64,000 bases of DNA from Vulcanimicrobiota bacterium. Its GTDB lineage: Bacteria; Vulcanimicrobiota; Vulcanimicrobiia; Eremiobacterales; Eremiobacteraceae. The notes beneath the pieces were generated by a model. It searched no databases, was not told where the DNA came from, and was given only the letters and a program-made list of their open reading frames with translations. A program made the translations under genes and the position numbers. The stretch is from contig CAWDVP010000006.1 of NCBI GenBank assembly GCA_963805945.1, positions 128,001 to 192,000 of the forward strand, in the 5' to 3' direction. Below, piece by piece: positions 6,652 through 57,104 of the stretch; position 1 is the first letter of the stretch, and every line of letters begins with the position of its first letter.

Positions 6652-7212
6652 CTACCAGCCGCCGGGCTCTTGCGGCGCGCTGCGCAGCGCCACGCACGGT
6701 CCGACGATGGCGGCGTTGATGACGGCCTGCGCGAGATCAAATGGAGCGGTCGAATTCATTCGACCGCCCGCGCGGTCGACTGAAGTCGAACGCTCCACAT
6801 CCATCGTGATCGGAACGCTGGCACTCGAAGCGCTAGGCGCCGCTAGCGCGCGCAGATCGCTCATCACCTGGCCGTGGCCCATCGCCGGCGCAGTCGAAGC
6901 GCCGGTGGAGAGCGCGCGCAGCTTCTGCTGCAGTTCGGCGGCGGCCGTGCTCGCCTGGGCCTTCGCCGCGATCGCCTGGATGACGTGCTCGAGCCGCTGC
7001 GCGCGCGTCGAAGAATCCGGCGCTTGGCTCGTATCGTCCGAGATCGTAGCGGTCGTGGTCGCTGGAGCCGCTATCGTCCGCGCCGGCGCATTCGCCTGCG
7101 CCGTGCGTATCGCGCGCCGGATCGACGTGAAGATGCCGCTGACGAGCCAAAAGGCGATGAAGACCAGCGTGATCCAGCCGCCGAGGTCGGCGGCGAGCAC
7201 GTTGCCGGACAT
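6652..7212 (-). CDS. YqfB-like membrane-anchored protein (contains an in-frame REP doublet)
   Basis: N-terminal TM, low-complexity middle, C-terminal LAQAVINAAIVGPCVALR; between floA and phoH. Confidence 0.65.
   Translation of the reverse strand: MSGNVLAADLGGWITLVFIAFWLVSGIFTSIRRAIRTAQANAPARTIAAPATTTATISDDTSQAPDSSTRAQRLEHVIQAIAAKAQASTAAAELQQKLRALSTGASTAPAMGHGQVMSDLRALAAPSASSASVPITMDVERSTSVDRAGGRMNSTAPFDLAQAVINAAIVGPCVALRSAPQEPGGW
6741..6797. repeat. REP family A inverted doublet (REPIN-like) inside a CDS
   Basis: atggagcggtcgaattcattcgaccg followed by the inverted copy cggtcgactgaagtcgaacgctcca. Confidence 0.85.
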
Positions 7213-7235
7213 CACGCCGAGCGGCGCGCCCACGT

Positions 7236-8273
7236 CTATGAGGTCGGCGCGGGCGGCGTGCCGGGCGGCGGCGTGATGCCGCCGCTGCCGCCGGTCTGCG
7301 GCGTGCTGCCGCCGGCGATCGACTGACGCATCTCGCTGTCGGCGAGCACGTTGCGCATCCGGTAGTAATCCATGACTCCGAGGTTGCCGCTGCGGAACGC
7401 ATCGGCGATGGCGGCCGGCACGAGCGCCTCCGCCTCGACGACCTTGGCGCGCATCGCTTGGGTCTGCGCCTTCATCTCCTGCTCTTGCGCCTGCGCGGCG
7501 TATTGGCGCTCGGCCGCCTTTGCCTGCGCGACGCGGCGATCGGCTTCGGCCTGCGCTGTCTGTAGATCCGCGCCCACGTTCCGGCCGACGTCCACGTCGG
7601 CGATATCGATCGACACGATCTCGAACGCCGTGCCCGCGTCGAGCCCCTTGGCGAGCACCGTCTTGCTGATGTGATCGGGGTTCTCGAGGACCTCTTTGTA
7701 GTTCTCGCTGCCGCCGATCGCCGCCACGACGCCTTCGCCGACGCGGGCGATGATCGTCGGCTCGCCGGCGCCGCCGACGTAGCGATCCATGTTGGTGCGC
7801 ACGGTGATGCGCGCCTTGACGTTGAGCTGGATGCCGTCTTTGGCGACGCCTTGGAAGATCGGCGTCTCGATGACCTTGGGATTGACCGACGTCTGCACCG
7901 CTTCGAGCGGATTGCGGCCGGCGAGATCGATCGCGCACGCGCGCTGCCATTCGAGCGGGATCTGCGCGCGCTGCGCGGCGATGAGGGCGAGCACCACGCG
8001 GTCGAGGTGGCCGCCCGACAGATACTGCGCCTGCAGTTGGGAGTCGTTGACGTCGATACCGGCTTTGCGCGCCATGATGAGCGAATCGACGATCACCGAC
8101 GGCGGTATACCGATGATGCGCATCCGCACCAGGCTGAGGATGCCGATGCGCACCCCTGCGGCCTGCGCGCGGATCCATAAACCGAACGGGAAGTAATATA
8201 GGAAGACGAAGAACCCGACGATCAGGACGAGGAGGATGATCACCAGCCCGATGACGCTCAGATTACCCAGCAT
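7236..8273 (-). CDS. floA: flotillin-like protein FloA (YqfA)
   Basis: [41 protein letters not shown]. Confidence 0.95.
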
Positions 8274-8288
8274 TGAAAGCTCGCTCCC

Positions 8289-9653
8289 TTACGCGGCCCG
8301 TGTGACGAAGATAGTGGCGCCTTCGACTTTAGCGACGACGACCCGCGTCTGCGCGGGCATGAAGTCGCCGCTCGACTGCACTTGATAGCGCGCGCCGTCG
8401 ATGGTGGCGACGCCCGCCGGACGCAGATACGTCTCGGCGACGCCCTGTTTGCCGACCAGATGCGCGAGCGACTTCGAGGTGACGTAGCCGGCCTCGATGG
8501 ATTGCGCGCCTGCGAATGCGATGCGGCGCATGAACGCGCTTTCGGGCAGCCAGCGCAATATGAAGAAGAACGCGACGAGCGCGAGGATGAGCGACAGCGC
8601 GGTGTTCACGATGCCCACGACCCAGAACGCGGCGCCGAAGGCCATGACGATGCTCGTGAGGATGAGCAGCGCCCCGACCAGCCCCGCGATGCCATGGCCC
8701 GGCAGCACGTGCAATTCGAAGAGCAGCGCCACCACCCCGAGCGCGAACAGCGCGACGATGACCCAATTCGACGCCCCGGCGATGATGTGGCCGCCGAAGA
8801 ACAGCGCCAGGGCCAGGATGCCGATGACGCCGGCGACGAGATGCAGCGTCTGCATCTCGAGGAAGAGGCCTAGGAAGCCGATCGTGAGCAGGATGCCCGA
8901 GACGATCGGGTCGGTGACGAATTGCGCGATCCGTTCGCCCAGCGTCGGCTCGCTCACCACGATGCGCGCCCCAGTGATGCCCGCGAGTTCGAGCGCGGCG
9001 CCGCTCGAGTTGGCCATGCCGTCCACGAACTTCATGTCGGTCGCCTGCTTGGCGGACAGCGTCAGCAGCTTGCCCTTGGCCTTGAGCCCCGGGACGTCCA
9101 GGGACGGATCGACCATCGCGCTCGCGACCTTCGGATCGCGATGATGCGCTTCGGCGAGCGACTCGAACTCGGCTTTGAGCGCTGAGATGGCCTTCTCTCC
9201 GGCGGGCTGCGTCGTGCCGCCGGTGCCGAGCAACACCGGCTCGGCTGCGCCCATGCTCGATCCGGGCGCCATGTAGATCTTATCGCACGACAGCGCGATG
9301 AGCGCACCTGCCGACCACGCGCGATCCGAGACGAAGGCGATGGTCTGCAGGCCGGACGTGCGCAGCGCGTCCTTGATGTCGTTGGCGTCGTCGACCAGCC
9401 CGCCGTTGGTCTTGATGTCGAGCACCAGCGTCTTGGCGCCGTTGGCGTGCGCTTCGTCGATGGCCCGGCTGATGCGATGCGCCATGCCGGCGTTGATGAT
9501 GCCGTCTACATTGACGACCTGCACGACGGCTTGCGCGCCGGTACCGGCGGCGGCGGACGGTCGACTGAAGTCGACCGCTACATATCCGAGCGTGCCGACC
9601 ACGACCGCGGAGCAGAACGCGGCGAGCCGGGCGAGTCTTAGGAATCTTTTCAT
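8289..9653 (-). CDS. nfeD: NfeD family membrane serine protease
   Basis: TNGGLV, AWSAGALIALSCD, TM region, LRPAG OB-fold. Confidence 0.92.
   Translation of the reverse strand: MKRFLRLARLAAFCSAVVVGTLGYVAVDFSRPSAAAGTGAQAVVQVVNVDGIINAGMAHRISRAIDEAHANGAKTLVLDIKTNGGLVDDANDIKDALRTSGLQTIAFVSDRAWSAGALIALSCDKIYMAPGSSMGAAEPVLLGTGGTTQPAGEKAISALKAEFESLAEAHHRDPKVASAMVDPSLDVPGLKAKGKLLTLSAKQATDMKFVDGMANSSGAALELAGITGARIVVSEPTLGERIAQFVTDPIVSGILLTIGFLGLFLEMQTLHLVAGVIGILALALFFGGHIIAGASNWVIVALFALGVVALLFELHVLPGHGIAGLVGALLILTSIVMAFGAAFWVVGIVNTALSLILALVAFFFILRWLPESAFMRRIAFAGAQSIEAGYVTSKSLAHLVGKQGVAETYLRPAGVATIDGARYQVQSSGDFMPAQTRVVVAKVEGATIFVTRAA
9558..9583 (-). repeat. REP family A copy inside nfeD
   Basis: Minus strand atgtagcggtcgacttcagtcgaccg, read in frame as YVAVDFSRP. 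Confidence 0.85.
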
Positions 9654-10477: not shown

Positions 10478-10554
10478 TGTAGGGGGTCGATCTTTAGATC
10501 GACCCTGTCCCGCCCGGCCCGTTGGGGGGGCCGACCTAAAGGTCGGCCCCTACA
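10478..10554. repeat. REP family B inverted doublet
   Basis: tgtagggggtcgatctttagatcgaccc and gggccgacctaaaggtcggcccctaca in inverted orientation. Confidence 0.9.
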
Positions 10555-12546: not shown

Positions 12547-12572
12547 CGGTCGAATAGATTCGACCGCTCCAT
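12547..12572 (-). repeat. REP family A copy (intergenic)
   Basis: Minus strand atggagcggtcgaatctattcgaccg. Confidence 0.85.
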
Positions 12573-16070: not shown

Positions 16071-16096
16071 GTGGGGGCCGATCTTTAGATCGGCCC
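16070..16096 (+). repeat. REP family B copy
   Basis: tgtgggggccgatctttagatcggccc, abutting the start codon of the 14550-16070 gene. Confidence 0.85.
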
Positions 16097-17993: not shown

Positions 17994-18010
17994 TGGAGCG
18001 GTCGAATTCA
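17994..18010 (+). repeat. REP family A half copy overlapping a stop codon
   Basis: tggagcggtcgaattca; its reverse-complement TGA terminates the 18008-18721 ORF. Confidence 0.7.
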
Positions 18011-18721
18011 AAAGCAAACGAGGCCAGTCGGATACCAGGGTTGCGGAGGAGGACCTTCTCTTATGCGCCAGGCGATGCTGTGCCGCGCAGCCACAAGATC
18101 AGCGAAACCGAAAACCATCATCTTCGGCTCATACCCACCGATCGGCATGACCGTCTGTGTGTCCTTGTCATCCACCCGCACTTCGAGGCTCAGTCTATTT
18201 CCATTAGAGACCGCGTAGCGAGTTCCGAAGTCGAACTCGTCGACATCGAGGGCGAGCATGACCCTGTTGCGAAAGATCGCGATTTGACGAAGCGTCGCTA
18301 CCTGCCCGATATCAGTGATCGTGACGACCCGCTCGCCACAGGATGCGGCATCAAGAGAAATGCCCCCGACTGCGGGCTCGTTCCAGAGCGAGCATCGCAC
18401 GTTCTTGTAGTCTTGGTTCACCTCTCGCGGAATCAGACTTTCCGTCTCGACCTCGAGCATGGGCGTCTCTGAGAAGGGGAAGACGTATTCGCGCGCGACG
18501 ATGTTCCCCGAGCTGTCGGAGAAGGCGAACTCGACCACCGGCAGACCGTGGACCGCTGCGGTTCCGGGCTTGGCTAGAAGCAGACCATGCCAAAATCGGC
18601 AGTAAAAACCAGAACGGATCATTGTCTGAGCCGGAGAATCAGCCGCAATCGCGACCTGTGCCTGGGTAACGAGCAAGGCGAGGACGATGACCGCTACTAT
18701 CGAGGGATGAATCGTTCTCAT
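18008..18721 (-). CDS. secreted hypothetical protein
   Basis: Signal peptide MRTIHPSIVAVIVLALLVTQAQVA; visibly less GC-rich than its neighbours. Confidence 0.7.
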   Translation of the reverse strand: MRTIHPSIVAVIVLALLVTQAQVAIAADSPAQTMIRSGFYCRFWHGLLLAKPGTAAVHGLPVVEFAFSDSSGNIVAREYVFPFSETPMLEVETESLIPREVNQDYKNVRCSLWNEPAVGGISLDAASCGERVVTITDIGQVATLRQIAIFRNRVMLALDVDEFDFGTRYAVSNGNRLSLEVRVDDKDTQTVMPIGGYEPKMMVFGFADLVAARHSIAWRIREGPPPQPWYPTGLVCF

Positions 18722-18765
18722 CAGCCGAATCCGAGCAGGGGATCCTGCTCCGATGCCGTCTTGCG

Positions 18766-20550: not shown

Positions 20551-21492
20551 TCAATTCGTCTGCCCCGGTGGAACTCCTGCCGCAGCGCCCTCGGCCAGCC
20601 AATCGCGCGGCTGGAAGAACGCGAGCGCTTTCGCCTCGCGGCTGCCCGGCTGCGGCTGCCAGCTGTATTCCCAGCGCGCGATGGGCGGCAGCGACATGAG
20701 GATCGATTCGGTGCGGCCCTGCGTGGCGAGCCCGAACGCGGTGCCGCGGTCGTAGACGAGATTGAACTCGACGTAGCGGCCGCGCCGCAGTTGCTGGAAG
20801 CGCCGTTCCGGCTCGCCGAAGGGCTCCGCGCGGCGCCGCTGCGCGATCGGTGCGTATGCCGGCATGAACGCGTCGCCGCACTCGCGCACGAAGGCGAAAG
20901 TCGCGTCCAGATCGCCGCTGAGATCGTCGAAGAAGATGCCGCCGATGCCGCGTGCCTCGCGGCGATGCGGCAAGAAGAAATAGTCGTCGCACCAGCGCTT
21001 GAAGCGCGGGTAATACGATGAGTCGTGCCGATCGCAGACCTGCTTCCAGGTGGCATGGAAATGGCGCGCGTCCTCTTCGTACGGATACACGGGCGTGAGA
21101 TCCGAACCGCCGCCGAACCACGCGCCTGCGCCGCGCTCGAGATAGCGGAAGTTGGCGTGTACGGTGGGCACGAACGGGTTGCGCGGGTGGAGGACCACCG
21201 AACAGCCGGTGGCGACGAAGCGTCGCTCGGTGCCGCCGAGCCGTGACAGCGCGTGATCGTCGAAGTCGCCCCACACCGCCGACCAGTTCACGCCGCCTTT
21301 TTCGAAGAGATCGCCGTCCGCGATGACCGCACTATGTCCGCCGCCGCCTCCCGGACGATCCCATGCGTCGAACGTGAAGCGCGCCGCGCCGTCGAGCTCG
21401 GCGAGCTCTTCGCATAGGCGCGATTGGAGCGCGCGGAAGTTCGCCTGCACGCGCAGGCAGAAATCGCTGCCGCGACCGTCGCTCTCGCTCAT
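20551..21492 (-). CDS. hemF: oxygen-dependent coproporphyrinogen III oxidase
   Basis: FEKGGVN, HPRNPFVPTVHANFRY, GGGSDLTP, RRGRYVEFNLVYDRGT. Confidence 0.97.
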   Translation of the reverse strand: MSESDGRGSDFCLRVQANFRALQSRLCEELAELDGAARFTFDAWDRPGGGGGHSAVIADGDLFEKGGVNWSAVWGDFDDHALSRLGGTERRFVATGCSVVLHPRNPFVPTVHANFRYLERGAGAWFGGGSDLTPVYPYEEDARHFHATWKQVCDRHDSSYYPRFKRWCDDYFFLPHRREARGIGGIFFDDLSGDLDATFAFVRECGDAFMPAYAPIAQRRRAEPFGEPERRFQQLRRGRYVEFNLVYDRGTAFGLATQGRTESILMSLPPIARWEYSWQPQPGSREAKALAFFQPRDWLAEGAAAGVPPGQTN

Positions 21493-22343
21493 GCCACGAT
21501 CACCATGCGTTCGAGGCCGGCTATGTCGTGCCGTATCTCGATGGAACGCTGTGGAAACGCTGCGCGCGCGATCGCTGCGAGGCCCGCTGCGTTTTTCGGC
21601 CCGCACTCGCAATAGATGCGGCCCGCGTCGCGCAAATGCGCCGGCGCAGTTGCGAACATGCGCCCGTATACTTCAAGCCCGTCGGCACCCGCGAAGAGCG
21701 CCTGCGCAGGCTCGTGCGCGCGGACGTCCGCGTGCAGCGCGGGATCCTCATCGCCGACGTACGGCAGGTTGGCGACGATGACGTCATACCGCTGCGCCGC
21801 CGGCACGGCGTCGAACAGATCCCCTGCGCGCAGACGTATCCTGTCGACGAGGCACAAAGCACCGATGTTCGCTCCCGCGACCTCGAGCGCCGCCGCGCTT
21901 GCGTCCGTCGCGGTGATGCTTGCGTCCGGCAACAGCTGCGCCAGCGCGCAGGCGATCGCACCGCTGCCCGTGCCGAGTTCGAGGATCTCCGGCGACGCGT
22001 GCCGCCAGTCGGCGGCGACCGCCGCGACGAGTTCTTCTGTTTCGGGGCGCGGCACCAGCACGCGGCGGTCCACCGCGATGCGGTTGCCGCAGAATTCCTT
22101 GAAGCCCACGAGATAAGCGACGGGCTCGCCTTGCGCGCGGCGCTCGGCGAGCGCGAACAGCTTCTCACGCCGCGCCGGCGCAAGCCGGTTGTCGCCATAC
22201 GCGACGATCGCCGACGCGTCCAATCCGGTGACGTGACTTGCCAAGATGCGCGCGTCGAGCCACGGCGTGTCCGAGATCCCGACGAGCCGGAGCCGGCACG
22301 TCTCCACCGCCCCCGCGATAGAGTCCGTAGCGGTCGAATTCAT
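21489..22343 (-). CDS. prmC: release factor glutamine methyltransferase PrmC
   Basis: GEPVAYL, VLVPRPETE, ELGTGSG, ANLPY; 284 aa from an ATG inside a REP. Confidence 0.93.
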   Translation of the reverse strand: MNSTATDSIAGAVETCRLRLVGISDTPWLDARILASHVTGLDASAIVAYGDNRLAPARREKLFALAERRAQGEPVAYLVGFKEFCGNRIAVDRRVLVPRPETEELVAAVAADWRHASPEILELGTGSGAIACALAQLLPDASITATDASAAALEVAGANIGALCLVDRIRLRAGDLFDAVPAAQRYDVIVANLPYVGDEDPALHADVRAHEPAQALFAGADGLEVYGRMFATAPAHLRDAGRIYCECGPKNAAGLAAIARAAFPQRSIEIRHDIAGLERMVIVA

Positions 22344-22350
22344 TCGACCG
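22327..22350 (+). repeat. REP family A copy overlapping the prmC start
   Basis: gtagcggtcgaattcattcgaccg. Confidence 0.85.
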
Positions 22351-22374
22351 TACCCTTTCGCACGAAAGTCGGGG

Positions 22375-23490
22375 TTACGCATCGCCGCTGAGCCGCTTGC
22401 GTTCCTCTTCGGTGAGCAGCGCATCGACGACGCCGTCGAGGTCGCCCGCGAGGATCGCCTTGAGATTGCCGGTGGTGAAGCCCACGCGATGGTCGGTGAG
22501 CCGGTCTTGCGGAAAATTGTAGGTCCGGATCTTCTCGCTGCGGTCGCCGGTGCCGACCTGCGAGCGACGAGCGGACGCGGTCGCCTCTTCCTGCTCGCGC
22601 AGCTTCGCCTCGTAGAGGTGCGCGCGCAACAGTTGCATGGCGCGCTCGCGGTTCTGCAGCTGCGAGCGCTCTTCCTGACAGGCGACGACGACCCCGGTCG
22701 GCTTGTGGGTGATGCGGATCGCCGACTCGGTCTTGTTGACGTGCTGGCCGCCGGCGCCGGACGCGCGATACGTGTCCACCTGGAGGTCGGCCGGGTTGAT
22801 CTCGATCTCGACGGCGTCGACTTCCGGCAGCACCGCGACCGTCGCGGTGGAGGTGTGGATGCGGCCGCTGCCTTCGGTTTCAGGCACGCGCTGCACGCGA
22901 TGGACGCCGCTCTCGAACTTGAAACGCCGATAGGCTCCCGCGCCGCGCACCGCGACGACCGCTTCCTTATAACCGCCGGCCTCGTTCTCGGAGATGCTCA
23001 CGATCTCGGGTTTGAGGCGATGACGCTCCGCGAACTTCAGATACATGCGCATGAGGTCGCCGGCGAACAGGCCGGCTTCGTCGCCGCCGGTGCCGGCGCG
23101 AATCTCGATGAAGGTGTCTTTGTCGTCGTTGGGATCTTTCGGGATGAGCAGCGCGCGCATGCGCCCCTCGACGTCGATGATCTCCGCGCGCAGACGCGCG
23201 ATCTCGCCGTGCGCCATCTCCGCGATCGCGGGATCCGGGTCGCGTGTCATCGGCTCTGCCTGCGCGAGCTCGTCGTTGAGGGCTTGATACTGCTGATGCG
23301 CGAGCACCAACGGCTCGAGCTGCGCGCGTTCCTTGGAGAGCTTCTTGTTCTCTTCTGGATCGAAGGATGACGACATCGCCGCGAGCTTCGCGTTGATCTC
23401 GTCGAAGCGCGCGTCGACCGCGGCCAGGCGCGCAGAGAAAGGGCTGCGATCCCGGTCGCGGCCCTTGTCCTGGGGACCTGTGTTGTCCAT
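22375..23490 (-). CDS. prfA: peptide chain release factor 1
   Basis: GAGGQHVN, PET specificity motif, followed by prmC. Confidence 0.97.
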   Translation of the reverse strand: MDNTGPQDKGRDRDRSPFSARLAAVDARFDEINAKLAAMSSSFDPEENKKLSKERAQLEPLVLAHQQYQALNDELAQAEPMTRDPDPAIAEMAHGEIARLRAEIIDVEGRMRALLIPKDPNDDKDTFIEIRAGTGGDEAGLFAGDLMRMYLKFAERHRLKPEIVSISENEAGGYKEAVVAVRGAGAYRRFKFESGVHRVQRVPETEGSGRIHTSTATVAVLPEVDAVEIEINPADLQVDTYRASGAGGQHVNKTESAIRITHKPTGVVVACQEERSQLQNRERAMQLLRAHLYEAKLREQEEATASARRSQVGTGDRSEKIRTYNFPQDRLTDHRVGFTTGNLKAILAGDLDGVVDALLTEEERKRLSGDA

Positions 23491-24756: not shown

Positions 24757-24790
24757 TGTAGGGGCCGATCTTTAGATCGGCCCTTTTCTT
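24757..24790 (+). repeat. REP family B copy with a U-tract (terminator-like)
   Basis: tgtaggggccgatctttagatcggccc-ttttctt. Confidence 0.85.
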
Positions 24791-24849: not shown

Positions 24850-26502
24850 ATGGCCATCGCCGGACGTTTCTTCAACGCTACCGCGGCGCTTGCGTTCTTC
24901 GCAGCCGTGATCGGCGGGTCAGGCGCCCACGCTGTCGCCGCGCCGGCTGAAGGGCCTTCTGATCCGCCGGGCCTGCAGCCCACCTCGACGACGCTTGCCG
25001 CGGTCATCGCGTCCGCGAAGAAAGCGTATGGCCGCGCGACGCGCACCGACGCAGCGCTCGCAGAGCAGTGGACGACGACCGATGCCGGCGACGTCGAGAA
25101 CGGTTCGTCGGTCACCATGGGCGCCGACTATGCGATCACTTTGACGACCGCCGGCTTGACGCGGCGCTACGGCGAGTACAAAGGGCGCAGCTGGGAGCAG
25201 AACGAGAACGGCATCGTGACGCTGCTCGAGGGCGTGCACGGCAACGCGCGCGGCTCGCTCGACGATACGTGGCGCTCGGCCGAAGTGGACGGCGCGCGCC
25301 TGCTCGGTGAAGTGCAGTCACCTGGACCCGCGTACGTCGTCGAGACGCTGTCGGTCAGGTCGAGGCGCATGTGGCTCTTCTTCGACAAGGCGACCGCATT
25401 GCTCGATCGCGTCGTGCTGTTCTACGCCGGCGGGCAATACACGTACGATTTCAGCTCTTATCGATCGGTGGGCGGCGTCGCCGAAGCGGAGCGCATCCAC
25501 GGCGCCAACGAGAAGGGCGACGACGCGTTTGATACCGCGGTCACCTCGCGCACCTATTCCCCGAGCATCGCGTCCGGCGCGCTCGCCATCCCGGCGAATC
25601 GCTCCGATCTAGTGGCGTTCCCCGCGGATCGCGCCAGCGTGCGGCTTCCGGCGAGGATCCTGGACGGCCGCTTCATCGTGGTGCGCGTCAACATCAACGG
25701 CCGCGGCCTGGACTTCGCCCTCGATTCAGGTGCCGACGGCATCGTGATCGAACGCGGCGTCGCCGAGGAGCTCGGCCTGCGAGGCGTCGGCGATACACGA
25801 CGTGAGGGCAAGGCGAAGGTGCAGTACCACGTCGTCGCGCCGGAGATCGACGTCGGCGATCTGCACATGAGGAACGTCGTGATCCAAAGCCTGCCCTTCG
25901 ATACCGAGCAGGAAGAGACGACCAAGGTTGTAGGGCTGCTAGGCTTCGACTTCCTCGCCGGAGCGGTGCTCAAGGTGGACTACGACCACGGCACGCTCGA
26001 CGCGTTCCCCGCCTCGAGCTTCGACCCGCCGGCCGGCGCGAAGCCAATCAGCGTCGCGCTCGACGATCAAGTCCCGATGATCTCGTGTCAGATCAACGAC
26101 GTCACCGCGAAGTACCTCATCGTCGACACGGGCGCCGATAGTCTCTACGTCTACTCGCATTTCGCCATCGCCAATTTCGCCGGATCGCCCGACCCCCGGA
26201 AGAACGTGTTCAAAACGGTCTACTTCCCCTTCTACAAGGATATCGTGGTCGGCGGGCTGGTCCAGGCGGCGCAATTCCGCGCCGCGTCGTTCGTGCTCGG
26301 TGAATATTATTTCGGGGGCCCGCTTTTATATGTGACGTGGCACGCCTCGAGGTTCGAGGACGTGCTGGTCGACACCGACGGCATCATCGGCCACTCGCTG
26401 CTGCTCTACTTCGACCTCTATTTCGATTACCCGCACGCGCGCATCTATCTCGTGCCCAACGCGACGTATCGGGCCGTGAGCGGTGCGACGGGAGCCCGCT
26501 AG
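24850..26502 (+). CDS. secreted aspartyl protease with two retropepsin-like domains
   Basis: Signal peptide; FALDSGA..GLLGFDFL and LIVDTGA..GIIGHSLL..FDY. Confidence 0.85.
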   Translation: MAIAGRFFNATAALAFFAAVIGGSGAHAVAAPAEGPSDPPGLQPTSTTLAAVIASAKKAYGRATRTDAALAEQWTTTDAGDVENGSSVTMGADYAITLTTAGLTRRYGEYKGRSWEQNENGIVTLLEGVHGNARGSLDDTWRSAEVDGARLLGEVQSPGPAYVVETLSVRSRRMWLFFDKATALLDRVVLFYAGGQYTYDFSSYRSVGGVAEAERIHGANEKGDDAFDTAVTSRTYSPSIASGALAIPANRSDLVAFPADRASVRLPARILDGRFIVVRVNINGRGLDFALDSGADGIVIERGVAEELGLRGVGDTRREGKAKVQYHVVAPEIDVGDLHMRNVVIQSLPFDTEQEETTKVVGLLGFDFLAGAVLKVDYDHGTLDAFPASSFDPPAGAKPISVALDDQVPMISCQINDVTAKYLIVDTGADSLYVYSHFAIANFAGSPDPRKNVFKTVYFPFYKDIVVGGLVQAAQFRAASFVLGEYYFGGPLLYVTWHASRFEDVLVDTDGIIGHSLLLYFDLYFDYPHARIYLVPNATYRAVSGATGAR

Positions 26503-37897: not shown

Positions 37898-38845
37898 ATG
37901 CCGAAGAAGATCATCGCCGTGCTGGGAGCGACCGGCGCACAAGGCGGCGGCTTGGTCCGAGCGATCCAAAACGATACAGCGGGCGAATTCACCGCGCGCG
38001 CCGTGACGCGAGATGTGAACTCGGACAAAGCGAAGGCGCTGGCAGCGCTCGGGGCCGAGGTTGTCGCCGCCGACGTCGATGACATCGAGAGCGTGAAGCG
38101 CGCGTTTGCCGGCGCATACGGCGCCTATTGCGTCACCTTCTACTGGGCGCACATGTCCCCCGAAAAAGAGATGGCAGAGGCCAAGACTTACGCCGACGCG
38201 GCGAAGCACGCCGGTCTTTCCCACGTGATCTGGTCGACGCTCGAGGATACACGCAAGTGGGTGCCGTTGAGCGATACCCGCATGCCGACCCTCATGGGGC
38301 ATTACAAAGTGCCGCACTTCGATGCCAAGGGAGAATCTGACAAGTATTTCTTCGACGCTGGCCTGCCCGTCACGTTTTCCCGGGCGTCCTTCTACTGGGA
38401 GAACTTCGTCTACTTCGGCATGGGTCCGAAGAAGGGTCCCGACGGGATGCTCGGGATCACACTGCCGCTGGATGGCAAGAAACTGCCCGGCATCGCCGCA
38501 GAGGACATCGGCAAATGCAACTATGGCGTCTTCAAGAGGGGCCGTGAATTCATCGGTAAGACGATTGGCCTCGCAGGTGAGGTGCTCACGGGGGCGCAGA
38601 TGGCCGCAGCGATGTCCAAAGCGCTTGGCAAGGAAGTGCGCTTCAACGGGGTCACGCCGGAGGTCTTTCGCGGTTTCGGCTTCCCCGGCGCAGACGACCT
38701 CGGCAACATGTTCCAATTCCAGAACGATTTCGAGGAGTATTTCCTCACCGCACGCGACCCGGTGCTGTCACGCTCGCTCAATCCCGAGCTGCAGACGTTC
38801 GACCAATGGCTGGCGCGCAACGCGGCAAAGATGCCCCTCGTCTAG
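37898..38845 (+). CDS. NmrA/HSCARG family NAD(P)-binding protein
   Basis: GATGAQGG, VPHFDAKG, FYWEN. Confidence 0.92.
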   Translation: MPKKIIAVLGATGAQGGGLVRAIQNDTAGEFTARAVTRDVNSDKAKALAALGAEVVAADVDDIESVKRAFAGAYGAYCVTFYWAHMSPEKEMAEAKTYADAAKHAGLSHVIWSTLEDTRKWVPLSDTRMPTLMGHYKVPHFDAKGESDKYFFDAGLPVTFSRASFYWENFVYFGMGPKKGPDGMLGITLPLDGKKLPGIAAEDIGKCNYGVFKRGREFIGKTIGLAGEVLTGAQMAAAMSKALGKEVRFNGVTPEVFRGFGFPGADDLGNMFQFQNDFEEYFLTARDPVLSRSLNPELQTFDQWLARNAAKMPLV

Positions 38846-39387
38846 GGCTTGCCGAGCAGCCGAAACGAGCCGAGGAATTTGTCGCTATCCTTCGGCAGCG
38901 GCGCATCGACCGGTGCGATGGCCAGCAATTGATAGAGGTAGTCACCGACCACGTAGATGCGCACCCGCACGTGATAGTTGCTCGCGGCGATGAACAGCTC
39001 GTAGCCCGGATTGCCATCGATCGAGATGCGCTGCTGTGACACGAGCGTCCCGTGCACGTTTGCGACGGCGCCGTTCTTCGCGCCCTCGAGCGCATCCATC
39101 GCGCGCGGCGCGATGAGGCCCTGGTCGTAGTGCGTCGAGGAGAACATGAAGGCGTTGTTGCCGCCCAGATCGACCGAGTAGACCTGCGACGTCACCGGCC
39201 CCGCCGCCGTCTGCGTCACCAGCTTCTTCACCGTCGGCCGCTGCGGCGCGGAGACCGCGAAACCATCCGCCGCATAGCTGTACTCGCTCCACGACGCGTT
39301 CGCGTCGGCGCTCGCCGGGAGCTCGCCCGTCACTACAAACGCGATCATGAGCATTAAGCCGATGATCGCCGTTCGTATCGTCTTCAT
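38842..39387 (-). CDS. secreted hypothetical protein (Mog1/PsbP-like)
   Basis: Signal peptide; DGNPGYE..YLYQL..KFLGSF. Confidence 0.65.
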   Translation of the reverse strand: MKTIRTAIIGLMLMIAFVVTGELPASADANASWSEYSYAADGFAVSAPQRPTVKKLVTQTAAGPVTSQVYSVDLGGNNAFMFSSTHYDQGLIAPRAMDALEGAKNGAVANVHGTLVSQQRISIDGNPGYELFIAASNYHVRVRIYVVGDYLYQLLAIAPVDAPLPKDSDKFLGSFRLLGKP

Positions 39388-40046
39388 AACGCCTTCTGGA
39401 GGCGCATCCCCACATCGTAGGGCACACCCCAGATCCACAACACCATCGGCTCCATCGCACCGCCTTCGCTCGCGATCTGCACCCATCGTCCGCCGGTCTT
39501 GTGATACAAGGTTTGACCGCCGCCTTCTTGCGGTGCTTTGAAGTCGATCGTGAGCAACGCCCACGGTCCTACCACGCTCGCCGACTTCACCGTGGCATCG
39601 CCGACGTGGTTCTCCGCATCGCGCACTGCCACGATGTCGGCGTGACTGGGCGGGCCGGTGAACTGGCCGACGCCGTTGGCCGCAAATGCCTTCCACAGCG
39701 CGGCGGCAGACTGGGCCGGCACGCCGCGCAACGAGAACGGGTCGCTCTTGTCGAGTTGGTTCTGGTAGTCCGGCAGTTCGCTCACCATCGTCCAGGTGGA
39801 CCCCGCGCGGTGCATGAGCATCGACGTGGTGAAAGAACGGCCGCACATGATGCCTACCACGGCGTAATCGCCCTGGACGAACTCGGCGGTCGCGGCCGGC
39901 GCTCCGGTCGGCAGCGGCCGCGTGATGCTCCCCTCGGGCGGGCACGTCACCGCATGGACGGCAGCGCTCGACGCACCTCCCGCAAGCGCCGCCCCAGCCG
40001 TCAAGACAAGGGCGGCGCCCAGCAACACCGGGAGGCGAGCCCTCAT
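39384..40046 (-). CDS. secreted hypothetical protein with a duplicated small domain
   Basis: Signal peptide; two GD/P-Y/W-A..LxHxxG..W units; ATGA/ATAG overlaps with neighbours. Confidence 0.65.
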   Translation of the reverse strand: MRARLPVLLGAALVLTAGAALAGGASSAAVHAVTCPPEGSITRPLPTGAPAATAEFVQGDYAVVGIMCGRSFTTSMLMHRAGSTWTMVSELPDYQNQLDKSDPFSLRGVPAQSAAALWKAFAANGVGQFTGPPSHADIVAVRDAENHVGDATVKSASVVGPWALLTIDFKAPQEGGGQTLYHKTGGRWVQIASEGGAMEPMVLWIWGVPYDVGMRLQKAL

Positions 40047-42691
40047 AGAGCCGGCGTCGTCACCTGTGCGGACAGCGCCTTGTCGGCCATCGCTCGGATG
40101 TCTTCGAGGTTCGCCTGTGTCACCTCGTCCAAACCGCCGCGGTCGAGCGCCTGCGTGCAGCGCTGCGACAGCGTCGCCAGGTGATGGCGCGCCAGCGCTT
40201 TCGCATCGGTCGGCGTGCCGGGATCCGGCCGCAAGGCGATGTGCACCAGCAGTTCCGCGTACCGATGCTGGAGGCTGCGGTGGATCACGTTCACGCTCAC
40301 CAGGCCGCGCGTCTGGAGATCGCCGTAGATGCTCTGGTCGGTCCAATCGAACAGATCCGATAGGCTCATCGTCTGGCCGGCCTTGCTCGTACGCAGCTCC
40401 ATGCTGTCGAGGCGCGTCATCACGTTGGGCTGGAACATCCGTCGCAGGGCAGCGACTTGGAAAGTCGTCACCGACACCTCGATTGGGAAGTCGAGCCGAC
40501 CAGTGTCGTTGGCATCGGCCTCCCAGTGCTCCCAGCGCGACGAGCCCATGCTGTTGATCAGCTGCGGCGAGAGGTTGAAGGCGTTGTCGCTGAACGCGTA
40601 GCGGTCGAGCAGCACGTACGCGCGCCGCTCGTCGGCCCGCGGGATCGGGATGAACGGTGTCTTCGCGTTGGGATCGCCCTTGTGGTTGCGCGTGAAGTAC
40701 TCGGCGCCAATGTACGTGGTCGGTACGAGCGTGTAGCGATACCAGTTGCGCAGCACGAGCATGACGTCTCGGCGCACCTGCTCGTAGCTGTCGCCGTTGA
40801 TCGGACGGCGCGACAGCAGGATGCTGAACATGCGCTGGTCCGTCGCGAGATTGTTCGCGGCGAAATGCAGCGGATCGGTGGTGAGATTGAACGGCGCGAA
40901 GCGCGGATCGCTCGAAAAGCCGTTCGCCAGCGCCGAATCCTCGTCGGTCGAGTAGAACAGCGCCGGCTGGGTGTATTGCGAGGCCAGCGCGCGCAGCGTC
41001 GGCAGCTCGCCTTCCGCCGAGCTCGCGTTGATCGGCTCATAGCCGTACTTTATCTGCGCGTAGTCCCACGGCCCGAGCCCGAGCTGGAACAGCGCGCCCT
41101 GCGGCTGGCCATGTGGCGACAGGTTGATCGGCGTGTACGCCATCACCGAGCCGACGATGCCTTGTGACGTTTTGCTCTGCACGTGCGCATTCGTGTAGAT
41201 GACCTCGGAGCCGAAGTTGTGGCGCAGCCCGAGCACGTGACCGAACTCGTGCAGCATGACCTGTTTGAGACTGTCGTAGGTGTACTGCTCCGGCGGCTCG
41301 CCGGCGAACTTGCCGTCGAGCGCGAGCGCAAGCGTCGCCCAATCGCGCTGCGCCGCCATTTCCGTGCCCAGCGCGCAGTCGTGCAACTGGCAGGCGAGCT
41401 GTGTGGCCGTCGATGCGCCCATGGTCGGGTCGATGAGCTCCTTATACGCCACGGTGTAGCCGCGCACTTCGTTCGCGTCGAAGATGACCTCGCCGCGGAA
41501 TATCTCGCCCGTGAGCGGATCCGGAATGGACGGACCGGCCGCGCCGAACGCCGGGATCGGCGTGGTCGCCCAGCGCACGATCGAATAACGCGCGTCATCG
41601 GGATCCCAATTCGGATCGTCGGGCTGTTGGCGCACCTCGATGGCGTGGGTGATGCCGATCGCCTCGAACGCCTTGTTCCAAGCGAGGATCGCGTCGCGCA
41701 TCGCTGGCCGGTATTCCGTGGGGATCTCGTTGAGCAGATAGAACACGATCGGGTTCTTGGCAGGCGAGACCTTTGCGGTCGGATCGGTCTTCTGGATGTT
41801 CCAGCGGTTGATGTAGACGACGAAGCTGGAGTCGCCACGCATCTGGTCGTCGTATTGCCGGCGTGCCGTCAAGAAGTAGCCGCCGCGGTCATCTGCGATG
41901 CGCGGCCGGTAGCCGTCGTTCGGCAGCTCCAAGATGCTATTGTGGATCTTCAAGAGCAGGAAGCGCGAGTCGGGCACCGCGTCGATCCCCGCATCCGGCG
42001 TGCTCGAGCTCCACGTGAGATCGGTTTCGATCTCGACGTTCTTGGGAAACGACTTCGTCGGGCCGTAGTAGCTGAGGCTGCGATTAAGGTTATAGCGCGC
42101 CTGCGGCGTGGTATTCCCCTGGTTGAGCGGATCCGAGATGTCGTTGAGGTCCGTCATGAGGAAGTCCGCGGGGAACACGATGTCGCCGGTCGCCTTGTTG
42201 ATCGAGGCGATCGAGTCTGAATTCACCACCGAGGGAGGATACGAATTCGCCACGCTCAGCGCCGCCGACGTGTTCGGCTTGGCCTTGCCGTACGGGTTGT
42301 CTTCGACGAGCAGTATCTTGTCGCCGGCGCGCTGGAACCTGATGATGGTCGAGCCGAACGGGATGCCGGCCACCAGGAAACGCTGCGCATCGACGCCGTT
42401 GACCAGCGTCGGGACGAGCAAGTACGGCGTGTCGAGCTGCGAGGGGGCGATCTCGAACCACACCCTGCCCTGCTTGCGCCACACGGTGAACAGGCCGGGC
42501 TGGGAGTCGGCACCGTCTTTGAATTTGTCGTAGGGCACGCCGACCTCGCCGTTGCTGGGAGTCGGGCTGCCGACCGGCGTGATGGACACGGGGACGGCGA
42601 CGACCGTGCCGGCCGACAAAACGCGCGCGGGAACGGCGGATACGATGAAGACCAGCGCTAGAAGCGCCAGTGCACGATATGAGCTGCGCAA
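40043..42691 (-). CDS. zinc-dependent metalloprotease (DUF5117/DUF5118/EcxA-like)
   Basis: PRIADDRGGYF, WNKAFE, HEFGHVLGLRHNF, SVMAY Met-turn. Confidence 0.9.
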   Translation of the reverse strand: MRSSYRALALLALVFIVSAVPARVLSAGTVVAVPVSITPVGSPTPSNGEVGVPYDKFKDGADSQPGLFTVWRKQGRVWFEIAPSQLDTPYLLVPTLVNGVDAQRFLVAGIPFGSTIIRFQRAGDKILLVEDNPYGKAKPNTSAALSVANSYPPSVVNSDSIASINKATGDIVFPADFLMTDLNDISDPLNQGNTTPQARYNLNRSLSYYGPTKSFPKNVEIETDLTWSSSTPDAGIDAVPDSRFLLLKIHNSILELPNDGYRPRIADDRGGYFLTARRQYDDQMRGDSSFVVYINRWNIQKTDPTAKVSPAKNPIVFYLLNEIPTEYRPAMRDAILAWNKAFEAIGITHAIEVRQQPDDPNWDPDDARYSIVRWATTPIPAFGAAGPSIPDPLTGEIFRGEVIFDANEVRGYTVAYKELIDPTMGASTATQLACQLHDCALGTEMAAQRDWATLALALDGKFAGEPPEQYTYDSLKQVMLHEFGHVLGLRHNFGSEVIYTNAHVQSKTSQGIVGSVMAYTPINLSPHGQPQGALFQLGLGPWDYAQIKYGYEPINASSAEGELPTLRALASQYTQPALFYSTDEDSALANGFSSDPRFAPFNLTTDPLHFAANNLATDQRMFSILLSRRPINGDSYEQVRRDVMLVLRNWYRYTLVPTTYIGAEYFTRNHKGDPNAKTPFIPIPRADERRAYVLLDRYAFSDNAFNLSPQLINSMGSSRWEHWEADANDTGRLDFPIEVSVTTFQVAALRRMFQPNVMTRLDSMELRTSKAGQTMSLSDLFDWTDQSIYGDLQTRGLVSVNVIHRSLQHRYAELLVHIALRPDPGTPTDAKALARHHLATLSQRCTQALDRGGLDEVTQANLEDIRAMADKALSAQVTTPAL

Positions 42692-42750: not shown

Positions 42751-43866
42751 TTGAGGGGCCGCGACCTTGAGCGCGTCGTAGGTGCCCTGGTGACCGACCA
42801 GACGGCAGCGCTCGCGGTGCGCTTCCTGACCGCCGTGGTCCCCAAGGCCGCGGCCGCACTGCGAAAGCTCAATAAGCGCGCTCGCGCCATCCCGGACCCT
42901 GCGATTCGGCGCGAGGCGCTGTCGAGCTTGCGCCACAAGGCCTTTCACGTCCATGGTGGCTGCGTGTTCGCGACATTTCTCGAGCCCGCGGCTGCGACGC
43001 GCTTCGTCGAACTCGTCGCGACGTATGAGACCGCGGTCGATTATCTCGACAACCTGTGCGATCGCATCGGCACCGCTGATGAAGCCGATTTCCGCGCTCT
43101 GCACGAGTCGCTGATCGACGCGATCACGCCAGACGCTCCGTTGCGTAACTACTTCCGGCACCGCGCCGGTGACGACGGCGGCTACCTGGCCGAGCTGGTC
43201 GTCCGCTCTCAGGCGTCCTTCGGTGGCTTGCCCGCCTACGATGCGGTGCGCGCTTCGGTCAAGGATGTGACCGAGCGCTACTGCGAACTGCAGGCGCTCA
43301 AACATCTCGCACCGGGAGAGCGGGAGCGGCGCTGCGAGGCTGCTTTCTCGTCCGTCGCGCCGGATCTGACATGGTGGGAAGCCGCCGCGGGCTGCGGCTC
43401 GACCATGTCGACCTTCGCCCTGACGTATGCAGCCGCGACGCCCTCGATCAGCGTGACACGCGAGAAGGCGATCTTCGCCGCCTACTTCCCGTATTTCACC
43501 GCACTGCACATCCTGCTCGACTATCTGGTCGACCAAGAGGAAGATCGCGCGCACGGCGAGCTCAACTTCGTCGCGCGTTACACCGACGCGGATGCCGCGC
43601 GCGAAGGCATCGTGCGCATCGCACGTGAGACCGACGCGCGCGTGCAATCGCTCGAGGATAGCGAGGTGCACCGCTTCGCTTTGCGCGCGATGTGCGGCTA
43701 CTACTGTACCCGGCCGACGCTCGCGAACACCGCCGGGCGCGCGACGACGCGCGAGATTTTCAACGCGGTCGGCATCGAGGTGGATGAGAGGACGGGCCTG
43801 CCGCGCCTCGGGGATCAACGGCTGCAGCCGCTGCTCGAGCTGTATGCGCGGATGAGCCGTCTCTAG
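42751..43866 (+). CDS. tetraprenyl-beta-curcumene synthase-like protein (YtpB/DUF2600)
   Basis: KAFHVHGG, DYLDNLCDR, DDGGYL..LV, WWEAAAGCGST, LHILLDYLVDQEED..GELNFV. Confidence 0.85.
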   Translation: MRGRDLERVVGALVTDQTAALAVRFLTAVVPKAAAALRKLNKRARAIPDPAIRREALSSLRHKAFHVHGGCVFATFLEPAAATRFVELVATYETAVDYLDNLCDRIGTADEADFRALHESLIDAITPDAPLRNYFRHRAGDDGGYLAELVVRSQASFGGLPAYDAVRASVKDVTERYCELQALKHLAPGERERRCEAAFSSVAPDLTWWEAAAGCGSTMSTFALTYAAATPSISVTREKAIFAAYFPYFTALHILLDYLVDQEEDRAHGELNFVARYTDADAAREGIVRIARETDARVQSLEDSEVHRFALRAMCGYYCTRPTLANTAGRATTREIFNAVGIEVDERTGLPRLGDQRLQPLLELYARMSRL

Positions 43867-43891
43867 CGGTCGAATGAATTCGACCGTCCAT
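43864..43891. repeat. REP family A copy overlapping the DUF2600 stop codon
   Basis: TAGcggtcgaatgaattcgaccgtccat. Confidence 0.85.
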
Positions 43892-51715: not shown

Positions 51716-52567
51716 TTAGGCGGCGAAGATGCGCCGCCCCACCAGCACCGCGACCACGATACCGGCCACGAACACCCCGAGCACGCCGAGGAGTGCTGCC
51801 AGGCCCGAGTGGCCGGTCGCCTTGCCGCCGCAGACGGCTTGGACGGCCTTGCCGAGGTCGAGATCGAAGCGCGCCAGCCCGCTCGAGGGCATGCCGTCCA
51901 CGTGGCGCGCGGCCGCGACCGCCTGCGCTTGCGTCCAGGTGACGTCGTCGATGAGGTAGCCGATGCGCCCATCGGGGCCGACGATGACGATGCGCTCGCT
52001 GTGCAGCAGTTCGCCATTGCGGCCCTGGATCACCGAGATGCCCAGCGGCTTGGCAAATGATTCGAGCAGCGCCGGCGCACCGGTGAGGATGTGCCAATTC
52101 GGCGCATGCACGCCGTGCGCGCGGGCGAAGTTCGCGATCGCTTCGGGCGTATCGCGCGCCGGATCGATGCTGATCTCGAGCAGCGCGAAGCGATCGCTCG
52201 GCAGCGCGGACGCCAACGCGGCGAATTTGCTCGTGAGGATCGGGCACTCGTCGGCGCAGTTCGTGTAGATGAAGCCGACGATCACGGTCTTGCCACGAAG
52301 ATCGGCGATGCGCAGCGGCCGGCCGCGCTCGTCGGTGTAGGTCGCGTCCGGCAGGACGTCTCCGACGGCTAGCGGCCGGACGGTCGCATCGAAGGGGTTC
52401 GCTTGAGCCGGGGCAGATGGAGCGGTCGAATTGATTCGACCGCCCGCCTGGGCGGGCACGCCCGCGAGGCACGCAAGGGCCAGCCCGCAAAGGGCGGCGA
52501 ACCGGCCGATTCTGATGGACAGGCCGGACGTCTTGACCCCTGCGGAGCGGCGCGCGATCATCATCAT
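51716..52567 (-). CDS. SCO family copper chaperone (start uncertain)
   Basis: FIYTNCADECP, ISIDPARD, WHILTG, HS. Confidence 0.9.
   Translation of the reverse strand: MMMIARRSAGVKTSGLSIRIGRFAALCGLALACLAGVPAQAGGRINSTAPSAPAQANPFDATVRPLAVGDVLPDATYTDERGRPLRIADLRGKTVIVGFIYTNCADECPILTSKFAALASALPSDRFALLEISIDPARDTPEAIANFARAHGVHAPNWHILTGAPALLESFAKPLGISVIQGRNGELLHSERIVIVGPDGRIGYLIDDVTWTQAQAVAAARHVDGMPSSGLARFDLDLGKAVQAVCGGKATGHSGLAALLGVLGVFVAGIVVAVLVGRRIFAA
52417..52447 (+). repeat. REP family A copy inside the SCO gene
   Basis: atggagcggtcgaattgattcgaccgcccgc; 30/31 identical to 6741-6771. Confidence 0.9.
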
Positions 52568-53120
52568 GCGGCCGTGGCGGCCGCACGAGCGGGCGGTCGT
52601 GTGGCGCGGCGCGAGCGGCCGCTTCGTCGTCGCGCTCGAACCGGCGGCGATCGCGTTGTGCTTCGGTCTTTTCACCGTGGCCATCGCTTCTGTCTCACAC
52701 ACTCCGGCGCATCAGGGCTACGTCTACTTCGCTTGGCTCTTCGGCTTCGGCGCCGCCGCCTTCACCCTGTATGCCGTCGCACTGCTCGTCAATCCGATCC
52801 GCGCCCTGCTGCAGACCGCCCAGCCGATCTTCATCGTCGACGGCTATCTGCGCACGCGCGTGCCGGACGACCGCTCGGCGCTCGACAGCAGCGGCTACAT
52901 CGCCGTCGTGCTCGAGGATGGCCGCGTGGCGTGCGAATGGCCGGCGATCGGGCACGCACGTCTTCCGGATGAGCGCTATCCGGCCTTTATGGAGTTCAGC
53001 GAGTTCGGCGGGATCCACAGCGTTGACGGTCGCAGCACGGGCGTGCTGCCGGATGACTTCCCCGCGCTCGGGGTCGGCGGTGCGCAGCCGCCGAAGCGCG
53101 GCGGCTACAGATTGCCCTGA
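52515..53120 (+). CDS. membrane hypothetical protein
   Basis: Two TMs plus a globular C-terminus; host-like codon usage. Confidence 0.7.
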   Translation: MDRPDVLTPAERRAIIIMRPWRPHERAVVWRGASGRFVVALEPAAIALCFGLFTVAIASVSHTPAHQGYVYFAWLFGFGAAAFTLYAVALLVNPIRALLQTAQPIFIVDGYLRTRVPDDRSALDSSGYIAVVLEDGRVACEWPAIGHARLPDERYPAFMEFSEFGGIHSVDGRSTGVLPDDFPALGVGGAQPPKRGGYRLP

Positions 53121-55816: not shown

Positions 55817-56884
55817 CTACTTGTGCAGCGATTCGAGGTAGGCGACGAGATCGGCGACATCGGCCGCCGTCAGCTGGTTGACCTGCATGTTCGGCATCGT
55901 GCCCATGTCACCGCTCGCGCCGCTCTCGATGAGCTTCGCGACGTCCTCCGGCGTTGCCGGGTAGCCGTTGACGAGGTTCGGATGATCCGCGTCGTGGAGC
56001 ACGTTGCCGAGCCCGGGGCCGACCTTGCGCTCGCTGAACGGCCCGGCGCTGTGGCAGGCGGTGCATTTGGCCGCGAAGAGCGTGGCGCCGTGCGCGGCGT
56101 CGCCCTTGCTGAGCACGACCGCCGGCACGGTGGTGCTGGCGACCTGGCCCTTCTGCTGGGCGAACCACTTGTCGAAATCCGCCTGCGACTCGACGACCAC
56201 CTTGCCGACCATATTCGAGTGGCCGAGACCGCAGAACTCGGTGCAGATGATGCGATACGTGCCCTTGATGATCGGGGTGAAATGGATGGGCACGATCATG
56301 CCGGGGATCATGTCCTGTTTGACGCGGAATTCCGGCGCCCAGAACGAGTGGATGACGGCCTTTTGGACGTTCGGCTCCGCCGAGGTGAGGTCGATCGTGA
56401 CCTGCTTGCCCACCGGCAGATGCATCTCGTTGAGGACGGAATTCTTGAGCCCCGGATAGCGGAACTCGTAGTAGAAGGTGTGTCCGACGGCTTCTATCGT
56501 CGCGACGCTCGCCGCGCTCGCCAGGTAGTAGCGCGGCAGCACGATATAGCTGATGATGGCCAACACGATCATGAGGATGGTCGGGATGACCGTCCAGCCG
56601 ATCTCCAGCGGCGGGTAGTCGTGGACGTTCGAGCCGACCGCCATGGGATCGTCGCCCTTGCGCGTGTGGTAGCGCCAGGCGAAATAGATGATGTAGCCGT
56701 TGACGTACACGAGGATCGGCACGCCGAAGAACGCCATGAAGCGGAAGATGTAATCGATGTCGAGCGCGGCCGAGGATGCCGCGGGCAGATAGTCGCCGAT
56801 AGGGAAGATCACGACCCCCCACATGAGCAGGCCGCTGATCACGGTCATCAATGCCGTCGCCGCCCAGAACTCATGGTCCAGCAA
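55817..56884 (-). CDS. ctaC: cytochrome c oxidase subunit II fused to cytochrome c (caa3 type)
   Basis: LEIGWT, VIHSFW, CTEFCGLGHSNM CuA motif; C-terminal CTACH and MP. Confidence 0.95.
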   Translation of the reverse strand: MLDHEFWAATALMTVISGLLMWGVVIFPIGDYLPAASSAALDIDYIFRFMAFFGVPILVYVNGYIIYFAWRYHTRKGDDPMAVGSNVHDYPPLEIGWTVIPTILMIVLAIISYIVLPRYYLASAASVATIEAVGHTFYYEFRYPGLKNSVLNEMHLPVGKQVTIDLTSAEPNVQKAVIHSFWAPEFRVKQDMIPGMIVPIHFTPIIKGTYRIICTEFCGLGHSNMVGKVVVESQADFDKWFAQQKGQVASTTVPAVVLSKGDAAHGATLFAAKCTACHSAGPFSERKVGPGLGNVLHDADHPNLVNGYPATPEDVAKLIESGASGDMGTMPNMQVNQLTAADVADLVAYLESLHK

Positions 56885-56990
56885 CGGGGCCGAGCGCGTC
56901 TCTTTCAGTGCATCGTCTCCCGCGGTGCGGTTAGGCGCAGAGGCGGTGGCATCCTCGCTACCGTTTCGGAGTCTGTTGACTTGGTCGCAA

Positions 56991-57075
56991 TGCCGAAGGT
57001 GGGAGTTGAACCCACACGAGGGGTAACCTCGCGCGATTTTGAGTCGCGTGCGTCTGCCAGTTCCGCCACTCCGGC
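56991..57075 (-). tRNA. tRNA-Leu(CAA)
   Basis: GCCGGAGTGGCGGAACTGGCAGACG..CT-CAA-AA; long variable arm. Confidence 0.95.
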
Positions 57076-57088
57076 CTGATGATAGATG

Positions 57089-57104
57089 AGTTCGACCGCT
57101 CCAC
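57089..57104 (-). repeat. REP family A half copy
   Basis: Minus strand gtggagcggtcgaact. Confidence 0.5.

Follow-up and report, generated by a model that had tools for sequence, protein, structure and literature searches.

The window studied here, 64,000 nt in length (G000:C6:128001-192000), comes from the genome of a soil bacterium of the Eremiobacterota/Vulcanimicrobiota (G000; 2.3 Mb, 66% G+C, 82% complete) and contains copies of a short tagged hairpin of the repetitive extragenic palindrome (REP) type, which we have called family A and which is found between genes and also in frame inside unrelated proteins. We consider it likely that this is a 24-nt REP family of the kind served by REP-associated tyrosine transposases (RAYTs), that it has spread in the genus, and that a unit of eight codons combined with purifying selection explains its in-frame coding copies.

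Family A is a high-copy family of 24-nt tagged hairpins

The consensus of family A is G(G/T)AG-CGGTCGAAT-TY-ATTCGACCG, that is, a 4-nt tag followed by the two arms of a 9-bp stem enclosing a 2-nt loop, 24 nt in total. On its 5' side the unit is preceded by a T (91% conserved) and, less strongly, by an A (63%), the 3' tail shows no conservation, and the exact insertion unit presumably has these limits. A genome-wide position-weight scan retrieved 174 non-redundant copies from G000 against none for the reversed control. Within the window, strict CGGTCGA-N6-TCGACCG palindromes occur six times where 0.01 would be expected, with a seventh at 6773 carrying two mismatches. Stem position 8 covaries across the 174 copies (A-T in 126, G-C in 24 and C-G in 14). 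As in GTAG-type REPs, an unpaired tetranucleotide stands 5' of a stem-loop of 5-13 bp, and the family combines high copy number with a patchy, lineage-restricted spread.

The first-pass annotation of the window, made from its letters alone, had proposed a mobile, genome-wide enriched palindrome of ~26 bp with compensatory stem changes and had named nine positions for it. All nine hold whole or half copies (17994 and 57089 being the halves), the 30/31 identity between the copies at 6741 and 52417 is confirmed, and the compensatory changes, the enrichment and the reading as a mobile REP-type hairpin are likewise supported. The length and the tag needed correction: the unit is 24 nt, and the tag is mostly GGAG, with 111 exact GGAG copies vs 19 GTAG copies in G000. 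GGAG is dominant in three of the four copy-rich genomes of the genus, the exact copies of G002 being 12 GGAG vs 105 GTAG. The GGAG form leaves five of the six reading frames open.

Coding copies in the window are true insertions

Five copies in the window are coding and in frame, as had been claimed: two in a YqfB-like gene and one each in the genes for NfeD, SCO1/SenC and PrmC. The last three labels are backed by Pfam or NCBIfam; the YqfB-like label is positional only. The NfeD copy is a GTAG-tagged singlet with a compensated C-G stem pair (9558..9581, minus strand) encoding residues 25-32 (VAVDFSRP) of a minus-strand gene (8289..9653; PF25145, PF24961, PF01957), directly after the hydrophobic leader and before the Pfam domain, which begins at residue 44. 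In the SCO1/SenC open reading frame (ORF; 51716..52702, minus strand; PF02630), a plus-strand singlet (52419..52442), read in reverse as GGRINSTAP, also lies directly after the leader and before the Pfam domain and adds 7 to 8 residues; the start codon is uncertain and lies upstream of the repeat, as judged by alignment of the leader with orthologues. Alignment of syntenic blocks revealed a 24-nt gap at the repeat in 5/5 congeners for both NfeD and SCO. Both peptides are also absent in G004 and in outgroups, the SCO row of G009 having failed to align.

The PrmC copy (22327..22350, plus strand, GTAG tag), also a singlet, encodes YGRMNSTAT on its reverse strand, within the N-terminal tail of the protein (21489..22382, minus strand; TIGR03534 above cut-off), with a net gain of 6 residues. 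The ATG of prmC that overlaps prfA (MR.P) is kept in 6/6 genomes, upstream of the repeat. The two YqfB-like copies form a doublet with the tags outside, the left arm (6743..6766, plus strand, GGAG tag) being read in reverse as GGRMNSTAP and the right arm (6773..6796, minus strand) as VERSTSVDR; the 62-nt doublet has a folding energy of -27.8 kcal/mol (z -9.3). Its host gene (6652..7233, minus strand) follows floA and has 0 matches in Pfam and NCBIfam. The doublet occupies a length-variable C-terminal region, in frame with and upstream of an IG.C..LR..P..PGGW end conserved in 5/5 aligned congeners, and the region around it is too variable to show a clean indel. The repeat is absent from orthologues, and starts downstream of the repeats are ruled out, the true ones lying upstream.

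Among the pieces examined, contigs of a ~90-93% identical relative bridged no family A copy. In run X1 they show an A>C at window position 9580 that would change the tag of the NfeD copy from GTAG to GGAG, and these contigs may derive from other repeat copies.

Family A is depleted inside genes, yet far less than a 26-nt family

We have compared family A with family B, a 26-nt REP of the same genome (165 copies), with a third family, C, and with random sites. Gene calls came from our own hexamer model, which misclassified at least four coding copies; on these calls the 174 family A copies divide into 27 ORF-internal, 18 C-terminal within coding sequence (CDS), 38 N-terminal and ambiguous, 10 stop-giving and 81 intergenic. 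The family is strongly enriched between genes, yet a large minority, 45/174, lies within CDS. The ORF-internal share is 27/174 for family A vs 2/165 for family B (p=8e-7) and 823/1500 (55%) for random sites, and a stricter local test of embedded copies gave 22/174, 2/165, 14/69 for family C and 1644/3000 for random sites. Family A is hence ~3.5-fold rarer in ORF interiors than random sites: it is selected against inside genes, yet far less than family B. The congener loci gave 28 internal and 9 C-terminal copies of 151. Copies matching the consensus perfectly are coding (internal or C-terminal) in 16/79 cases vs 6/165 for all family B copies (p=6e-5), and three 26- to 27-nt families of other genera had none of 90 sampled copies embedded (g4 0/26, g9 0/37, G017 0/27).

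Several observations weigh against unit length and selection as the full account. A 24-nt tag-and-hairpin REP of G015 (273 copies in total) was in CDS in 0/39 sampled copies (p=0.006-0.017 vs family A), so length alone is insufficient; the 3' tail of this REP is weakly conserved, and its true unit may exceed 24 nt. Length is also confounded with age, family B being nearly confined to G000 with its RAYT and families A and C being common to congeners. The coding share of family A climbs with divergence (16/79, 18/68 and 11/27, from 20% to 41%). The net change over 39 sites has a median of +3 residues, with 11 sites at +6 to +10 and 14 at zero or below, clean +8 insertions being a minority. To these are added the errors of the hexamer model on coding copies and a cognate RAYT that did not turn up in the 7 genomes of the genus, in 80 genome loci or in 17 metagenome loci.

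A survivor effect would read these data differently: family A would be old and orphaned, the reading frame would protect the rare in-frame copies while intergenic ones decay or are replaced, and length would matter little. The coding occurrence of the older, RAYT-less families A and C, as opposed to the RAYT-bearing ones (B, G015, g4, g9 and G017, with the counts given above), fits this explanation, as do the climbing coding share and the several coding sites common to species at ~75% DNA identity. We regard it as unlikely, because perfect-consensus copies are already coding in 16/79 cases and because the insertions in NfeD and SCO occur in G000 only, with no need for a compensating change.

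Two other ideas were rejected. A length-mod-3 rule across genera failed for G015, while G022 (4 copies) and G017 (last base unconserved) were uninformative. The idea that GGAG is favored for removing the TAG stop was dropped, as GTAG copies of congeners are often internal (11 vs 15); the G000 counts leaning toward it (2/22 GTAG copies coding vs 36/129 GGAG copies) carry no statistical test.

Family C comprises 69 copies of 23-24 nt (GTAG-TG-CCCGAGC-GAA-GCTCGGG type, e.g., C6:83206, 96403, 111739 and 196820), often in frame, mainly as VVPERSSG (14/69 embedded); no RAYT turned up for this family. Two genes seem to be frameshifted close to REP copies (G000:C2:28779 and C8:36022), through assembly errors or in reality.

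Shared sites retain the hairpin, not the peptide

The first-pass annotation had seen in the hairpin a source of peptide modules for the proteome. This is not supported by what is found at coding sites occupied in more than one species, where different frames and orientations yield unrelated peptides. In CarB (matched to PDB 1A9X), family A occupies one helix-helix connector in four genomes and in three frames, giving RSAEVDRS in G000, ERSNSFDR in G002 and WSGRI(Y/H)ST in G005 and G006; the site is empty in G001. An AlphaFold model places the REP residues 105-112 at the predicted end of loop 100-106 and start of helix 107-119 (block pLDDT, the predicted local distance difference test, ~91), and the length of the connector differs widely among 20 homologues. 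In ValS (matched to PDB 1GAX), the peptide is DGR(L/V)NSTA, including DGRLNSTAP, in G000 and G002 and GAVDFIRP in G005, the site being empty in G001, G003 and G011. Overall, 15/28 internal copies of other genomes lie at a site also occupied in G000, in five genes, and some linkers are occupied by family A or by family C, depending on the species. What lasts is the hairpin in the DNA and the site that tolerates it, not the peptide.

That GRINSTAP-type peptides are kept by the proteins for their function is, in our view, extremely unlikely. One frame does dominate (R2, 21/45 coding copies of family A), and the same peptide recurs across species at some sites (ValS in G000/G002, C6:247114 and C2:653079). 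However, the three frames at one CarB connector leave modules unsupported, ValS adds a site with two frames, different REP families occupy the same linker in different species, insert-free orthologues are the norm and the copies are coding less often than random sites. The inserted peptides, which would be translated judging from the frames, are most likely neutral: tolerated passengers and not functional modules.

Coding copies could instead be kept as mRNA hairpins acting on ribosome pausing or mRNA stability, for instance after signal-peptide codons. Several inserts do follow hydrophobic leaders (NfeD, SCO, C6:247114 and L169), and compensatory changes keep the stems paired. Yet pairing is no better in coding copies than elsewhere (0.41 vs 0.29 unpaired positions), the stretch right after a leader also tolerates insertion best, and the inserts are absent from orthologues, which makes this explanation very unlikely.

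A dehydrogenase E2-like linker carries tandem copies in three genomes (G000:C6:279027-279092; L023:11873-12172; L038:19393-19497). The copies of G000 and G002 are read in the frame not open in the consensus, stem variants abolishing the stop, and several are still paired. The names PurL, dehydrogenase E2, MutS2, BtuF-like, MetE and RibH are putative labels based on sequence motifs.

Singlets dominate in G000, and copies show strand polarity in two congeners

REPs of the REPIN type (REP doublet-forming hairpins) occur mostly as inverted doublets, with singlets more decayed. Family A shows neither feature, and its decay pattern is reversed: 113/174 copies are singlets (without a REP of the three families within 400 nt), and these are nearer to the consensus than clustered copies (0.87 vs 1.62 mismatches, p=7e-4), with a pairwise identity of 0.904 vs 0.835. 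This bears on the classical REPIN model, in which the doublet would be the mobile form, singlets, including coding ones, would be remnants after loss of one arm, and opposite orientations at a site would reflect which arm was kept. Doublets with tags outside do occur (9/21 close pairs, including window 6743-6796), the opposite orientations at CarB and ValS are compatible with differential arm loss, and the net change is far from +8 at many sites. We find the model doubtful for family A, given the exact 24-nt gaps at NfeD and SCO and the abundance and low decay of singlets, the opposite of which is reported for REPINs in PMC3116915.

The copies of two congeners also show a marked strand polarity. 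On G002:C1, 55/59 copies beyond 990 kb (990000-2370120) are on the minus strand (p=2e-12), and of the 21 before 970 kb, 14 are plus-strand (not significant). Among the matches listed for G005, all copies of C3 (34/34) and C4 (31/31) are on the plus strand and the contig with dnaA has both orientations (21 to 14), with 25/125 matches outside these counts. The polarity spans more than 1 Mb and applies to genes of both strands; G000 does not have it (91 minus, 83 plus). A replichore explanation was rejected, as there is no flip at the presumed terminus (located by a weak third-position skew signal). A tblastn search with 19 RAYTs of the bacterial family found no RAYT in the switch zone. Another REP family, on G028:C1, also appears strand-biased.

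As a tentative and, on balance, improbable extension, the lone 24-nt hairpin could itself be the mobile unit, re-inserted or swapped in loops of essential enzymes and spreading strand-specifically without a tie to the lagging strand, which would leave domains of one orientation over 1 Mb long across the presumed terminus. If true, such a unit would represent a minimal, frame-preserving REP lifestyle, contrary to the REPIN model, and a propagation mode not described before.

Distribution and the search for a cognate transposase

Exact GGAG plus GTAG copies number 130 in G000, 117 in G002, 141 in G005 and 149 in G006, and 5, 1 and 0 in G001, G003 and G004, respectively. Outside the genus, where only the GGAG form was searched, any of 54 genomes had at most two matches, and viral contigs had none. 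A tree of two partial genes, used only for the position of G000 (the G003 and G004 branches are long, and one node has 52% support), resolved G000 as the sister of the remaining congeners (100%), among which the copy-poor genomes are nested. This nesting suggests an ancestral gain of family A and a later loss in one subclade.

The expectation of a RAYT gene flanked by family A hairpins was not borne out. Searches with PF01797/NF047646 found none flanked by family A in the seven genus genomes, and none of the six congeners had any RAYT; tblastn with the 19 family RAYTs found none in the 80 genome loci or the 17 metagenome tandem loci. The sole RAYT of G000 (NF047646, above cut-off, in a genome 82% complete) is flanked by family B. 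At L001:1350-1975 (G000:C3, ~119.5-120.2 kb) it forms a complete family B REPtron, a RAYT flanked on either side by two B REPs; G002 has a clean empty site here, and in G005 different DNA is present.

RAYT genes are present in 17/31 other genomes of the bacterial family (G016 counted as having one, G010 and G013 as lacking one), and such genes, accompanied by diverse tagged REPs, are frequent there (L212-L237). The REPs nearest to family A, GKAG-CGGTCGAG(A/C)T-TY-A(T/G)CTCGACCG of 26 nt, border bona fide RAYT genes in the genus g4, whose genomes have 199-419 copies of them, none of the 26 sampled being embedded in CDS. By this kinship, family A would also have been mobilized by a RAYT.

The course of events that we propose starts with the spread of family A through the genus, most likely already in the ancestor, and one subclade then lost it. 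The enzyme would have been an HUH tyrosine transposase of the RAYT type that has since disappeared or is missing from the assembly; it would have recognized the hairpin with its tag in single-stranded form and, at new sites, copied or replaced it. On insertion into a gene, the frame would often be kept because the unit is eight codons long and the GGAG form has five of six frames open. Purifying selection would clear most coding insertions, the survivors probably lying in tolerant places, namely stretches that follow a signal peptide, tails at either terminus, Ala/Pro linkers and connectors between helices.

Relation to known systems

Intragenic GTAG REPs have been described by Di Nocera, De Gregorio and Rocco (2013, PMC3733652), with 70 Opitutus terrae rows and a discussion of neutral insertion in linkers. 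In-frame GTAG REPs were thus already cataloged, and the novelty that the first-pass annotation saw in in-frame insertion was overstated, although the insertions stand. Family A is a variant of these published intragenic REPs, real and well supported, and a similar family may be among those cataloged. Common to both are the unpaired 5' tetranucleotide, the short stem-loop, more than 100 copies as singlets and dimers, tags giving TAG stops, and copies inside ORFs encoding 7-8 residues. In contrast to those REPs, family A belongs to a different phylum and its dominant tag is GGAG, a string that does not occur in the main text of the paper; in addition, the coding share has here been gauged with orthologues and with a control family of the same genome as references.

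Like TnpA-REP group 3 as described in PMC8266576, family A has a perfect stem with the tag 5' of it. It resembles the REPIN/RAYT systems of Bertels and Rainey (2011, PMC3116915) in that related REPs border RAYT genes (NF047646) within its bacterial family, and it differs in the dominance of less-decayed singlets, the cognate RAYT that was not found and the large intragenic share. REPINs at fixed extragenic sites are replaced in place within one species (REPORTH, bioRxiv 10.1101/2024.10.14.618302). Family A likewise lasts at orthologous places while the type changes, but it also does so inside essential coding sequences and between species, with frame and orientation changing.

As in the Rickettsia palindromic elements (RPEs) summarized in PMC3733652, a palindrome appears in frame in unrelated conserved proteins, at least as predicted from the reading frames. 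RPE-4/6 carry a CGTC tag and have no dedicated transposase, according to the same paper. Family A differs from RPEs in its 24-nt length and its GTAG-class GKAG tag, having neither a CGTC tag nor a long palindrome. RPE-1 is much longer than 24 nt. The departures of family A from textbook REPs are the dominance of singlets with low decay and the megabase strand polarity in two congeners. We found no papers on REPs in this lineage or on REP strand polarity, most subscription papers being outside the search.

For the question of how REPs move, the genus amounts to a natural experiment, with families that preserve or break the frame side by side in a single genome, sister species rich or poor in REPs, and coding sites at which the constraint of the reading frame records insertion length. 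It makes testable whether a REP singlet can be what replicates and whether the length of the unit governs entry into coding sequence. Family A sites also chart insertion-tolerant positions in essential enzymes, while the role of the family as a source of new protein function appears minor.

Other copies and features of the window

The remaining family A copies of the window lie between genes or at gene ends, as judged by their position relative to ORFs. A singlet (12547..12570, minus strand) lies between an HIT gene and a peroxiredoxin gene, and a half copy (57089..57102, minus strand) between an MFS gene and a tRNA gene. Another half copy (17995..18010, plus strand) gives, on the reverse strand, the TGA stop of an ORF ending at 18008; this ORF (18008-18760) has 0 Pfam/NCBIfam matches and no match in the syntenic blocks of five congeners. 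A copy with a decayed tag (CTAG; 43863..43886, plus strand), upstream of the RNase P RNA, provides the TAG that terminates a DUF2600 gene, and G002 has a family A copy at the equivalent site.

The first-pass annotation had missed family B (GTAG-GGGCCGATCT-TT-AGATCGGCCC type), our control family and cognate to the only RAYT of G000. Its four copies in the window comprise a doublet (10480..10553, no strand assigned) and two plus-strand singlets (16071..16096 and 24758..24783). The region 26500-42000 has three tRNA genes and a lower ORF density and may be an island.

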